A stretch of 12,269 bases of DNA from IMG/VR virus record IMGVR_UViG_3300009149_005470, one strand, 5' to 3'. The DNA comes from a virus. Below are positions 6,069 through 6,166 of this stretch, piece by piece. A model generated the notes under the pieces. That model saw only the letters and a list, made by a program, of their open reading frames with translations, was not told the origin of the DNA and ran no database searches. Within the stretch, counting starts at the first letter, position 1. The number at the start of each line of letters is the position of its first letter. Position numbers and translations under genes: made by a program.

Positions 6069-6164
6069 ACACTCATAACACTCTTTTTCTAATATCGACA
6101 TAGGAAAAGATTATATCATTTTTTCCCATATTAGAATAAAATTAATTGAGTGTTAATTGAGTGT
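6069..6164. repeat. IR2: long imperfect inverted repeat or hairpin (96 nt) built from paired ACACTC / GAGTGT motifs
   Basis: Complementary segments are: 6069-6075 acactca / 6158-6164 tgagtgt; 6076-6083 taacactc / 6148-6155 gagtgtta; 6088-6095 tctaatat / 6128-6135 atattaga; and 6103-6111 ggaaaagat / 6118-6126 atttttcc plus c (one G-T wobble). The apical loop is 6112-6117. That gives about 32 potential base pairs in four helices, interrupted by bulges. Confidence 0.6.
6110..6118 (-). promoter_or_regulatory. candidate extended -10 promoter element (TGATATAAT) facing the downstream minus-strand operon
   Basis: The reverse complement of 6110-6118 (attatatca) is TGATATAAT, a perfect TGnTATAAT. There is no good -35 (TATTCT at 17-nt spacing). 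It lies at the apex of IR2, with two ACACTC motifs about 33-55 bp upstream and two inverted copies about 27-41 bp downstream on the transcribed strand. TATAAT-like strings are common in DNA this AT-rich, so the call is weak. Confidence 0.3.
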
Positions 6165-6166
6165 TA
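6143..6166. repeat. tandem 11-nt direct repeat (taattgagtgt x2.2) forming the right arm of IR2
   Basis: 6143-6153 and 6154-6164 are both exactly taattgagtgt, followed by ta. The core GAGTGT recurs as its complement ACACTC at 6069-6074 and 6078-6083. Confidence 0.8.

Follow-up and report, generated by a model that had tools for sequence, protein, structure and literature searches.

In phage T7, RNase III hairpins follow promoters (R1.1, R3.8, R4.7, R6.5 and others), in SP82 an RNase III site acts as a 5' stabilizer, and long stems, as in T7 mRNA processing, are well suited to cleavage by RNase III and protect 3' ends. Short cores repeated with a regular period are found in the 5' leaders of the TRAP ((G/U)AG repeats, Bacillus subtilis trp leader) and HutP (UAG repeats) systems, and a linear motif lies beside a conserved hairpin in both the lambda nut site (linear boxA, boxB hairpin) and the T4 gene 32 operator (structured nucleation element, UUAAA repeats). 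With respect to transcription initiation, RNAP-encoding jumbo phages have AT-rich early promoter motifs of approximately 10 nt (PMC7598289).

The locus presented here lies in a window of 12,269 nucleotides, the whole stretch of DNA that was analyzed, from an uncultured phage (IMG/VR record IMGVR_UViG_3300009149_005470). An initial annotation had read positions 6069-6166 as an extended -10 promoter between operator sites, with an RNA hairpin adjoining a longer inverted repeat (IR1) as a second reading. The second reading is supported by our analysis, in which the hairpin (IR2) is part of a wider conserved module. Most probably the motif belongs to an untranslated leader RNA that is folded and is conserved in a group of uncultured giant phages, rather than forming a host-type promoter between repressor sites. 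On balance we lean towards a locus-specific cis-acting RNA module located in a 5' leader of ~370 nt, downstream of a phage-type TATA promoter, and its role is probably factor binding, processing or stability. The minus strand is the sense strand for the leader, and its last two ACTCA units correspond to the GAGTGT copies of the plus strand. The features of the locus, from 5' to 3' on the sense strand, are as follows.

6232-6242, minus strand: ACTATATATAT, invariant AT-rich candidate phage promoter, 22 nt past the stop codon of an 89-aa gene
6181-6185, minus strand: distal ACTCA unit; the tandem pair follows 23 nt downstream, after a degenerate unit (spacings in the window 23 and 11)
6142-6166, minus strand: two tandem 11-nt units (AACACTCAATT twice), the last two members of the conserved ACTCA array
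6061-6174, minus strand: full IR2 hairpin, predicted for the sense RNA from fold energy and from the consensus structure in four relatives
6098-6131, minus strand: apical stem-loop (AUAUGGGAAAA, loop, UUUUCCUAUGU), conserved in all module-bearing relatives
6110-6118, minus strand: TGATATAAT, the extended -10 of the initial annotation, in the apical loop, neither conserved nor enriched
6096-6104, minus strand: CCUAUGUCG, 3' base of the apical stem and GUCG, family consensus CCUNYGUYG
6069-6083, minus strand: GAGUGUUAUGAGUGU, 3' strand of the outer helices, holding on the plus strand the two ACACTC copies; lineage-specific
5935-6029, minus strand: IR1, long hairpin with perfect 26-bp arms (5935-5960 and 6004-6029), a separate module that always accompanies the 192-aa gene
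5897-5925, minus strand: conserved U-rich tract GGGUUUUUGUUUGUUUUGUCUGUUUUUUU between IR1 and the ribosome-binding site, present even in L048, which lacks both hairpins
5858-5874, minus strand: Shine-Dalgarno GGGGG (5870-5874) and ATG (5860-5858) of the 192-aa gene, a clear ribosome-binding site

The short motifs reported in the initial annotation were all confirmed, with ACACTC at 6069-6074 and 6078-6083 and GAGTGT at 6148-6153 and 6159-6164 on the plus strand, an exact 11-nt tandem (TTAATTGAGTG twice) at 6142-6163, and TGnTATAAT, which reads TGATATAAT, at 6118-6110 on the minus (coding) strand. Four of the five ACACTC/GAGTGT sites of the 12.3-kb window fall within these 96 nt, and two copies of the hexamer together with two of its reverse complement within 100 nt arose in 21 of 1000 dinucleotide shuffles of the window. 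The units at 6142-6166 (GAGTGT on the plus strand) form the 5' strand of the two outer helices of IR2.

Folding of the sense RNA (6175-6060) gave -39.0 kcal/mol, compared with -16.5 +/- 2.8 for shuffled sequences (z -8.0), and the antisense RNA of the region folded at -32.2 kcal/mol. The fold is far from random, and the predicted hairpin is slightly longer than the ~96 nt described previously, an extra 6-bp outer helix extending it to 6061-6174. The predicted helices of 6, 7, 8, 4 and 11 bp comprise this outer helix, ACACUCA/UGAGUGU (7 bp), UAACACUC/GAGUGUUA (8 bp), a short helix and the apical stem (11 bp), a helix length within the size range of RNase III substrates (at least about two turns of dsRNA, internal loops tolerated). 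In the consensus structure of the four closest sequences, the only ones to carry the full outer helices, 94.8% of cells were paired versus 38-56% with slid partners, and both-sided changes were observed at four pairs. Within the outer helices of these four sequences all variation was one-sided, from U-A to U.G, with no double compensatory changes. The apical stem, compared across nine sequences, showed compensatory changes at at least three pairs (AU to GC, GC to AU, and AU/UA/GC exchanges), and compensatory changes were also present in the L029, L030 and L031 hairpins. The changes seen on the transcribed strand, compensatory or wobble, preserve the pairing as expected of a structured leader RNA, although the sample is small. 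Covariance-model alignment was used for the divergent hairpins in place of MAFFT and RNAalifold, which returned no structure from 9-12 of them, the 5' arms being misaligned by 1-2 nt.

With respect to strand, 26 G.U pairs were counted in the sense orientation of the IR2 modules versus 11 in the antisense. The asymmetry in stability was modest, with the sense strand more stable in seven of nine modules by a difference mostly below 3 kcal/mol, and the antisense strand slightly favoured in L001, L028 and L031. Together, the compensatory changes and the G.U bias appear to favour a hairpin on the sense strand. For IR1 the sense strand folded better than the antisense in 18 of 20 loci (G.U pairs 129 versus 56). 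This clear sense specificity of IR1, along with the fold and G.U pairing of IR2 that also favour the sense strand, indicates that the leader is used as RNA.

Conservation was analyzed in 13 distinct leaders from related RNAP-encoding phage contigs (the window, L025, L040, L042, L001, L028, L043, L049, L045, L047 and L029-31). All share the same order on the sense strand, namely CTATATATAT, ACTCA repeats, hairpin and CCUNYGUYG, and the conserved hairpin base is AUAGGAAAA/UUUUCCUAYGU followed by GUCG. In each leader the array is rich in A/U and poor in G, and consists of 2-5 tandem ACTCA units with a period of 11-12 nt; exact ACTCA copies number 37 across the 13 leaders, on the sense strand only and spaced by 11-13 or 22-25 nt, and TAACACTCAA is invariant in six relatives. 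Across ~130 kb of related loci ACTCA clusters were essentially confined to the leader, with three two-copy clusters elsewhere (one in the window, one in L030 and one at the syntenic site of L029), and CCUNYGUYG on the sense strand was unique to the leader in all loci checked. The ACTCA core and the hairpin base are retained where the neighbouring protein is only 58-65% identical and the surrounding leader sequence diverges. In L029-31 no more than 4 nt separate the GUCGG of the hairpin from AAGGAGG, and an ORF comes next, which places the hairpin in a 5' UTR. The whole module is absent from L048, where the upstream TATA motif is retained.

The paired arrangement of hexamers seen in the initial annotation is conserved in its 5' half, ACTCA units being present in all 13 leaders, but not in its 3' half. 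On the sense strand the 3' GAGTGT occurs in the window and L025 only, reads GGGTGT in L040 and L042, is degenerate in L001 and L028, and is absent in L043, L049, L047 and L029-31; the GGGTGT substitution keeps RNA pairing by G.U and does not keep a protein half-site. The duplex between repeats and 3' flank gave z values of -6.4 in the window, -4.9 in L025, -4.8 in L042 and -2.9 in L040, and was not significant in six other relatives. In the lineage of the window the last two ACUCA units thus have complements in the 3' flank, where two GRGUGU copies have been acquired, and this pairing folds the array into an extended 114-nt hairpin, which is the "inverted pair of pairs" of the initial annotation.

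When databases were searched, blastn of the region against GenBank phages gave no match. An exact 17-mer scan of IMG/VR returned one copy per related contig, so that the sequence is not a dispersed motif, the other matches lying in coding regions of phages that are not related. Short or gapped patterns (ACTATATATATNATTT; ACTCAAN{9,39}TTTCCTNYGTY) run against viral and genome contigs returned no true relative among the matches listed, which were mostly due to chance. Rfam 15 gave only sub-threshold generic miRNA-hairpin matches in the window, to IR1, and a single tRNA and nothing else in 14 related loci. Nothing relevant was found in the literature on this phage clade (vault-protein phage).

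On the coding strand the leader lies between a candidate promoter upstream, CTATATATAT, and the clear ribosome-binding site downstream. (A)CTATATATAT was found at the same place in every syntenic relative, a second copy of the AT-rich motif lies upstream of a 335-aa gene in the window and in L042, another lies upstream of a gene in L030, and in L033 the motif is followed by a tRNA; the promoter-like TATATATA sits just upstream of these other genes and of the tRNA. From this conservation and recurrence we infer that CTATATATAT would serve as a phage-type promoter for the leader. [quoted passage not shown] The beta-like subunit encoded here is unsplit (1366 aa), presumably unlike that of phiKZ or AR9.

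Two further statements of the initial annotation were not sustained. The downstream 192-aa gene had been labelled SSB, and it gave no match in Pfam, PHROG or NCBIfam, while its confident AlphaFold model (pLDDT 91) had no structural neighbour. The locus had also been called the only regulatory hub in the window, which is overstated, since terminator-like hairpins lie in the intergenic regions 1644-1722 and 4240-4304, the former with a second TATATATA.

Several other signals were considered and rejected. A conserved leader peptide was suggested by a 19-aa ORF starting at an AUG inside GUUAUGAGUG (6076-6017); counterparts are present in L025 and L040, the start reads AUA in L042 and L001, and the AUG is absent in L028. 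The late promoter consensus of the AR9 nvRNAP is AACA-N6-TA/G (PMC7598289), and AACACTCAATTA fits it in the window; the relatives read AAACTCA, AGACTCA, ATACTCA or CAACTCA, with only the ACTCA core invariant. A phiKZ-type TATG initiator inside CCUAUGUCG likewise fits the window and is not kept in relatives, and CCTNYGTYG was ruled out as a general initiator by being unique to this leader.

As a cis-acting leader RNA, the module would operate as follows. Transcription would start just downstream of CTATATATAT (6242-6232, minus strand), and the nascent leader would present first the ACUCA array, then the hairpin with its conserved base and 3' GUCG. The array could be recognized, in single-stranded form, by a factor that is multimeric or binds repeatedly, and the hairpin could serve in recognition, processing or stability, in the manner of the RNase III hairpins after T7 promoters. 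Hiding or exposing the repeats could serve as a switch in the lineage of the window. Both the factor and this regulatory outcome are what we infer from the module, base pairing, sense-strand placement and uniqueness to the leader that were observed. The order of elements resembles the T7 and SP82 sites: downstream of a phage promoter, here a candidate one, the untranslated leader contains a long imperfect hairpin, and a strong ribosome-binding site comes next. IR2 amounts to about 38 bp with internal loops and the adjoining IR1 to a 26-bp perfect stem. In contrast, the T7 sites have no tandem single-stranded repeats and the hairpin base here is conserved in sequence as well; the RNase III likeness itself is one of predicted structure.

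A more specific possibility, which we hold only tentatively and consider doubtful, is that the array and hairpin base form a loading platform for a multimeric RNA-binding regulator of phage or host origin (e.g. Rho), with the GRGUGU pairing as a switch. Here the resemblance is to the TRAP and HutP leaders, as the repeats partly overlap the 5' arm of a large hairpin, so that binding and pairing would exclude each other. TRAP sites, however, have 11 triplets at 5-6 nt versus 2-5 ACUCA copies at 11-12 nt, no overlapping terminator follows here, no TRAP or HutP homologue was identified, and the overlap of repeats and stem is restricted to the lineage of the window. Similarity to lambda nut and the T4 gene 32 operator extends beyond the linear motif beside a hairpin to the promoter-proximal position in a leader, and the operon here contains internal terminators; CUCAAUUAACA also resembles what we take to be the boxA sequence, GCUCUUUAACA, with the spacing off by one base and in the last unit only. 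As differences, the gene downstream is not a recognizable SSB, and most relatives have their repeats 5' of the hairpin, far from the ribosome-binding site. If true, the loading-platform reading would describe a new TRAP/HutP-like or rut-sequestering riboregulator of an operon in uncultured RNAP-encoding giant phages.

It is unlikely that the module acts as DNA, with the ACTCA units as iteron-like repeats for a phage protein (a transcription factor on the TATA promoter or a replication initiator) and the hairpins extruded, either single-stranded or as cruciforms, for instance at a priming site or in an origin of the T4 or T7 type that combines a promoter with an unwinding element. With a period of 11 nt, equal to a turn of B-DNA, the repeats could be sites on DNA, and their variable copy number (2-5) extends to the at least three direct repeats at helical spacing expected of iterons. 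Moreover, the non-coding region is long and AT-rich (GC 0.235-0.26), an AT-rich spacer separates IR2 from IR1 in the lineage of the window, IR2 also folds as DNA (z -6.6), and the compensatory changes are equally compatible with an RNA hairpin and a single-stranded DNA hairpin of the same sense strand. However, the distance from the repeats to the TATA motif and to the hairpin varies by 10-40 nt, so that helical phasing is not kept, and the AT-rich spacer is missing in L001, L043 and L049. There is no GC-skew inflection, the flanking genes are all co-directional and no initiator-like gene was recognized nearby. The module abuts a ribosome-binding site in L029-31, the repeats are not retained in all relatives (L048 lacks them), and the G.U pairs favoured on the sense strand would be A.C mismatches on the opposite strand of a cruciform.

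The proposal of the initial annotation, that TGATATAAT is a working extended -10 for a host sigma-70-type holoenzyme and that the ACACTC/GAGTGT pairs are operators for looping or polymerase block by a dimeric regulator, is not supported and now appears very improbable. In the window, a perfect TGnTATAAT on the coding strand is flanked by symmetric inverted hexamer pairs, as in gal/lac-type looping with an extended -10. The equivalent loop position holds TGnTATATT in L042 and L025, GGTTATAAT in L049 and AGTTAAAAT in L047, and in five of nine relatives UUUCCU is preceded at 3-5 nt by a -10-like hexamer that has G at -14, so that a weak internal promoter may be present. In contrast to a gal/lac arrangement, neither the -10 nor the 3' half-sites are conserved here and the arms covary as a stem, which a linear promoter would not need. 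Perfect TGnTATAAT occurs only in the window; at the homologous position L001, L028, L043 and L040 offer no usable -10, and no -35 element was found. Nor is TGnTATAAT commoner in the window than expected by chance (3 matches versus 1.75 +/- 1.3, the other two inside genes). Changes in the 3' half-sites are to G.U-compatible bases. Sampling of the other intergenic sites of the window and of ~100 kb of related loci from partial genomes gave no further copy of the hexamer motif, a result that the initial annotation had itself named as counting against its proposal, and L048 does without the entire module. The presence of TGATATAAT in the apical loop is most likely incidental.

There is also little to recommend the hairpin as a 3'-end, termination or processing structure of the mRNA of the upstream RNAP-gene operon, with CTATATATAT not the relevant promoter. 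No canonical terminator was found between the stop of the 89-aa gene (6264) and the hairpin, making read-through from upstream likely, and long stems can be processed or protect 3' ends as noted for T7. Such a structure overlaps with the processing variant of the leader-RNA explanation. A scan for intrinsic terminators over 5700-6400 returned 0 terminator-like sites, the stems being AT-rich and the 3' flank GUCGUAC instead of a U-run. At other junctions between genes of the window the hairpins are short and GC-rich, with a T-run after the one at 4240-4304, and the terminator style of this genome therefore differs from IR2. Furthermore, the association of the module is with the TATA motif and, in L029-31, also with the ribosome-binding site downstream of it.

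Finally, we find it scarcely credible that the element is a functionless by-product, with tandem repeats made by slippage and a duplication in inverted orientation that an AT-rich spacer tolerates, for while unit copy number varies, the GAGTGT complement is lineage-specific and L048 manages without the module, the ACTCA core and hairpin base outlast the divergence of the neighbouring protein and of the rest of the leader, and stem pairing is maintained by compensatory changes.

To our knowledge, regulation in giant phages with their own multisubunit RNA polymerases is poorly understood, and for uncultured lineages almost nothing is known. Returning to the leader-RNA explanation, three features of this locus stand out, namely a motif that may be a phage promoter (CTATATATAT), a structured leader that is conserved and of unusual length, and a single-stranded array of periodic repeats, which points to a factor that binds it specifically. 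Were the module only a processing or stability hairpin, it would be an ordinary feature of phage mRNA, and if it is regulatory it would give entry to post-transcriptional control in these phages together with a new RNA motif family. Under either outcome, annotation of the locus as a host-type promoter with operators would be wrong.

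All eight large open reading frames of the window (8/8) were on the minus strand, and GC content was 23-35%. The features, in sense order, were as follows.

First in the window, minus strand: 302-aa ORF
7131-11231, minus strand: RNA polymerase beta/Rpb2-like protein, 1366 aa (Pfam Rpb2_6, Rpb2_3, Rpb2_7; PHROG 'RNA polymerase beta subunit')
Next, minus strand: 196-aa ORF, then 89-aa ORF
6263-5861, minus strand: non-coding region of 403 nt containing the motif pairs of the hairpin IR2
Next, minus strand: 192-aa ORF, then 332-aa ORF
1723-4239, minus strand: 838-aa protein with major-vault-protein shoulder domain (PF11978, E 6e-20) and a weak vault repeat
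Last in the window, minus strand: 335-aa ORF

Start codons overlapping with stop codons, strong Shine-Dalgarno sites, and short hairpins of high GC content between genes indicate a prokaryotic virus. The beta-like gene, together with related contigs of up to 128-304 kb in which a beta'-like gene is also present, places the window in an uncultured phage clade with its own multisubunit RNA polymerase. At the DNA level, nothing similar to the window was found among GenBank phages. The vault-domain protein, also kept in the related locus L042, is unusual for a prokaryotic virus.

The initial annotation had described ACACTC copies at 6069 and 6078, GAGTGT copies at 6148 and 6159, an exact 11-nt tandem repeat at 6142-6163 and a perfect extended -10 sequence, TGATATAAT, on the minus strand at 6118-6110, and each of these sequence statements was correct. 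Four of the five ACACTC/GAGTGT sites of the window fall inside these 96 nt, and a comparable 'pair of pairs' arrangement arose in approximately 2% of dinucleotide shuffles of the window. Folding of the sense RNA (6175-6060) gave -39.0 kcal/mol (z -8.0), with an additional outer helix which extends the hairpin to 6061-6174; the region folded as DNA gave z -6.6, and the antisense RNA -32.2 kcal/mol.

Homologous leaders, that is, the non-coding stretch between the 89-aa and 192-aa genes, were collected using the flanking proteins as anchors (192-aa protein identity 89% to 58%) from loci L025, L040, L042, L043, L049, L001 (= L002 = L027), L045, L028, L047 and L029-L031. Also gathered were L048, with a short leader, and the more distant clades L033-L038 and L410-L415. 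When the leaders were read side by side, a consistent coding-strand architecture was observed.

Part 1, coding strand: stop of the 89-aa gene homologue, then an A-rich stretch
Part 2, coding strand: invariant (A)CTATATATAT, then about 25 nt of conserved sequence
Part 3, coding strand, about 45 nt further on: two to five ACTCA units with an 11-12 nt period
Part 4, coding strand: hairpin whose base, AYAUAGGAAAA / UUUUCCUAYGU plus 3' GUCG, is conserved in sequence
Part 5, coding strand: the second long hairpin, IR1, preceded by a small ORF in L029-31
Part 6, coding strand: conserved U-rich tract CUUUUUGUUUGUUUUG
Part 7, coding strand: Shine-Dalgarno site, then the 192-aa gene

The leader of L048 (972-1128), whose 192-aa protein is 64% identical, measures only 157 nt and carries CTATATATAT and the U-rich tract without IR2 and IR1, so both hairpins are dispensable in at least one lineage. 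In L029-31 the GUCGG of the hairpin is followed at most 4 nt later by AAGGAGG and an ORF, which places the module in a 5' UTR. These mini-ORFs have 4-12 codons and unrelated sequences. A 19-codon ORF, MSVVRRTSFLFYYLFISQD, is present in the window at 6017-6076 (minus strand), its AUG inside GUUAUGAGUG on the 3' strand of IR2 and its end inside the IR1 5' arm; similar short ORFs were seen in L025 and L040, and the AUG is changed to AUA in L042 and L001.

The proposal of an extended -10 promoter set between operator pairs of a dimeric regulator was not supported, as both components, the extended -10 and the 3' half-sites, fail on conservation. The frequency of TGnTATAAT is unremarkable in this AT-rich window (3 matches versus 1.75 expected, the other two inside genes). 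At the loop position of TGATATAAT, relatives have TGATATATT (L042), TGGTATATT (L025), TAGTATTAA (L040), GGTTATAAT (L049), AGTTAAAAT (L047), GTGTATATC (L043), GTGTTTATC (L028) and GTGTCTTTC (L001). A fair -10 hexamer is found in 5/9 and the TG is retained in only 3/9; by our rough estimate, one 5-of-6 hexamer occurs by chance about every 60 nt at 75% A+T. No -35 element was found with TGATATAAT. It may be a weak internal promoter in some lineages and is not the conserved feature. Two other promoter motifs, AACA-N6-TA (the late-promoter consensus of AR9) and TATG of phiKZ, also fitted the window sequence and were rejected because relatives do not keep them.

With respect to the half-sites, the plus-strand GAGTGT pair corresponds to the last two ACUCA units of a sense-strand array (AACACUCAAUU twice). 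Thirteen leaders contain 37 exact ACTCA copies, all on the sense strand, spaced 11-13 nt, or 22-25 nt with a degenerate copy in between, with the unit consensus WAAA-ACUCA-AWWA. Across all related DNA compared, ACTCA clusters are essentially limited to this leader: two were found outside homologous leaders, both two-copy, one in the window (opposite strand) and one in L030, and a third two-copy cluster, in L029, is at the syntenic site. Each related IMG/VR contig has a single copy of the exact 17-mer TCAATTAACACTCAATT, and the six closest leaders share the block TAACACTCAA without change. Read on the sense strand, the plus-strand ACACTC pair is GAGUGUUAUGAGUGU, the pairing partner of the repeats on their 3' side. 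This partner is not kept across relatives: L040 has GGGUGUUAUGGG and L042 has GGGUGUUAUAGGAG, the sequence is degenerate in L001 and L028, and L043, L049, L047 and L029-31 lack it. A duplex test of the repeat segment against the 45 nt 3' of the apical hairpin was significant in the window (z -6.4), L025 (-4.9), L042 (-4.8) and L040 (-2.9), marginal in L001 and L028, and null in six other leaders. The 'inverted pair of pairs' is thus a lineage-specific hairpin extension, built on an older, universally conserved direct-repeat array. In the lineage of the window, the last two repeats are predicted by folding to be paired with a complementary 3' strand.

The RNA-hairpin alternative, also raised initially, was supported and could be refined to a sense-strand leader module with compensatory and wobble changes. 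An RNAalifold consensus of the four closest sequences contained both outer helices and the apical stem, with 94.8% of cells paired versus 38-56% when partners were slid by 1-3 columns. Both-sided changes were present at four pairs, and 7/500 column shuffles reached the observed pairing values. Outer-helix variation among these four was exclusively U-A to U.G (two positions, two sequences), which keeps the helix in sense-strand RNA, whereas the opposite strand would have C.A mismatches. From these four sequences a covariance model was built, which matched the syntenic site in L028, L047, L049, L045, L043, L001, L030 and L029 (E-values 4e-4 to 1). The nine sense sequences aligned with this model retain their apical stem through AU to GC, GC to AU and AU/UA/GC exchanges, and the mutual differences between the long hairpins of L029, L030 and L031 include compensatory changes. 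IR2 has a moderate strand bias (sense more stable in 7/9 modules, mostly by <3 kcal/mol; 26 sense versus 11 antisense G.U pairs). The bias of the IR1 region is strong (sense more stable in 18/20 loci; G.U pairs 129 versus 56), showing sense RNA to be the form in which the leader is used.

IR1 is a separate conserved leader RNA module. Homologous sites of IR1 and the U-rich tract were drawn from L001-L049 and L410-L415, including clades without IR2. In about 20 distinct loci, IR1 (5935-6029 in the window) is followed after 12-20 nt by CUUUUUGUUUGUUUUG (5897-5925), a strong Shine-Dalgarno site and the 192-aa gene; its stem varies in sequence and retains its structure, and its 5' arm often opens with ACUCAAGA, similar to the ACUCAA repeat unit. 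No Rfam family was matched by IR2 or IR1 in the window and 13 related loci.

The sole element found in every relative, including L048, was CTATATATAT (6232-6242, minus strand, in the window). According to a review on the RNA polymerases of jumbo phages, each RNA polymerase-encoding jumbo phage has its own highly conserved AT-rich motif of about 10 nt centred near -10 of early genes (PMC7598289). CTATATATAT fits this description and is the putative leader promoter. If it is, the leader would measure 370 nt, with IR2 at about +65 to +180. Further copies of TATATATA are few in these loci, and all of them are on the coding strand a short way before genes: one precedes the 335-aa gene of the window (at 1665-1678) and one the L042 homologue of that gene, each after a GC-rich hairpin, and others precede another gene in L030 and a tRNA in L033. 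At the 335-aa gene (window 1644-1722, sense minus; L042 14107-14175) the hairpin GGGAGGATATAT/ATATATCCTCCC directly precedes ATTATATATATA, a second copy of the promoter-like TATATATA with a short leader, about 25 nt from the gene start. The tRNA of L033, a more distant relative, has anticodon UUA and lies at 1309-1385 (plus strand), about 115 nt after CTATATATAT (ARAGORN; Rfam tRNA 51.5 bits); it is a predicted ochre suppressor, a hint that stop codons may be recoded in that lineage. In the interval from CTATATATAT, the TATA motif, to the repeats (6186-6231, minus strand), about 35 nt after CTATATATAT are conserved across relatives (WWTTTAYTA-RGAAGAG-N-AATTGT), with a small hairpin on GUAAUUG/CAAUUA; transcription may start in this stretch, or it may form the first stem of the leader.

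Comparison of the leaders shows a locus-specific module of direct ACUCA repeats and a hairpin with a sequence-conserved base, conserved on the sense strand from the promoter-like motif to the ribosome-binding site, its pairing retained through compensatory and wobble changes. A cis-acting leader RNA module specific to this locus is, on balance, the explanation we favor, with moderate confidence. The repeats would form a single-stranded platform to which a factor binds repeatedly or as an oligomer, and the hairpin would serve in recognition, processing or stability. In the lineage of the window the extended helix would hide the repeats, so that the factor would have to compete with folding. Candidates for the factor include a phage RNA-binding protein, RNase III (on the stems) and Rho. 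Rut sites of Rho are G-poor with regularly spaced YC dinucleotides, and Rho is a candidate because the array has both properties. Intrinsic-terminator-like hairpins lie at 4240-4304 (sense minus; GGGAGGGTG-loop-CACCCTCCC, then TTTTT) and 551-635 (TGGAGTAGAGA-loop-TCTCTACTCCA, then TTTTTT), between genes of one operon, an arrangement implying that termination is partial or that read-through is needed; with such hairpins in the downstream operon, an antitermination role of the module is conceivable.

A DNA-level iteron or transcription-factor array is possible, as the repeat period equals one DNA turn and the compensatory changes equally fit a sense-strand DNA hairpin. However, there is no GC skew switch, the flanking genes are co-directional, the repeats lie at variable distances from the TATA motif and from the hairpin, the module adjoins a ribosome-binding site in L029-31, and L048 lacks it. 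The hairpin could also be a 3'-end or processing structure of the upstream operon, a possibility which overlaps the processing variant of the leader RNA model. A neutral by-product is argued against by the conservation of the module.

Among the closest functional analogues of the leader RNA module, with no membership claimed, are the RNase III hairpins after T7 promoters, the repeat arrays that TRAP or HutP bind in leaders, and sites that combine a linear box with a hairpin, such as lambda nut. The class, structured cis-acting leader RNA, is familiar; the element itself is new and unnamed, belongs to a phage clade about which little is known, and carries an unusual array of periodic repeats.
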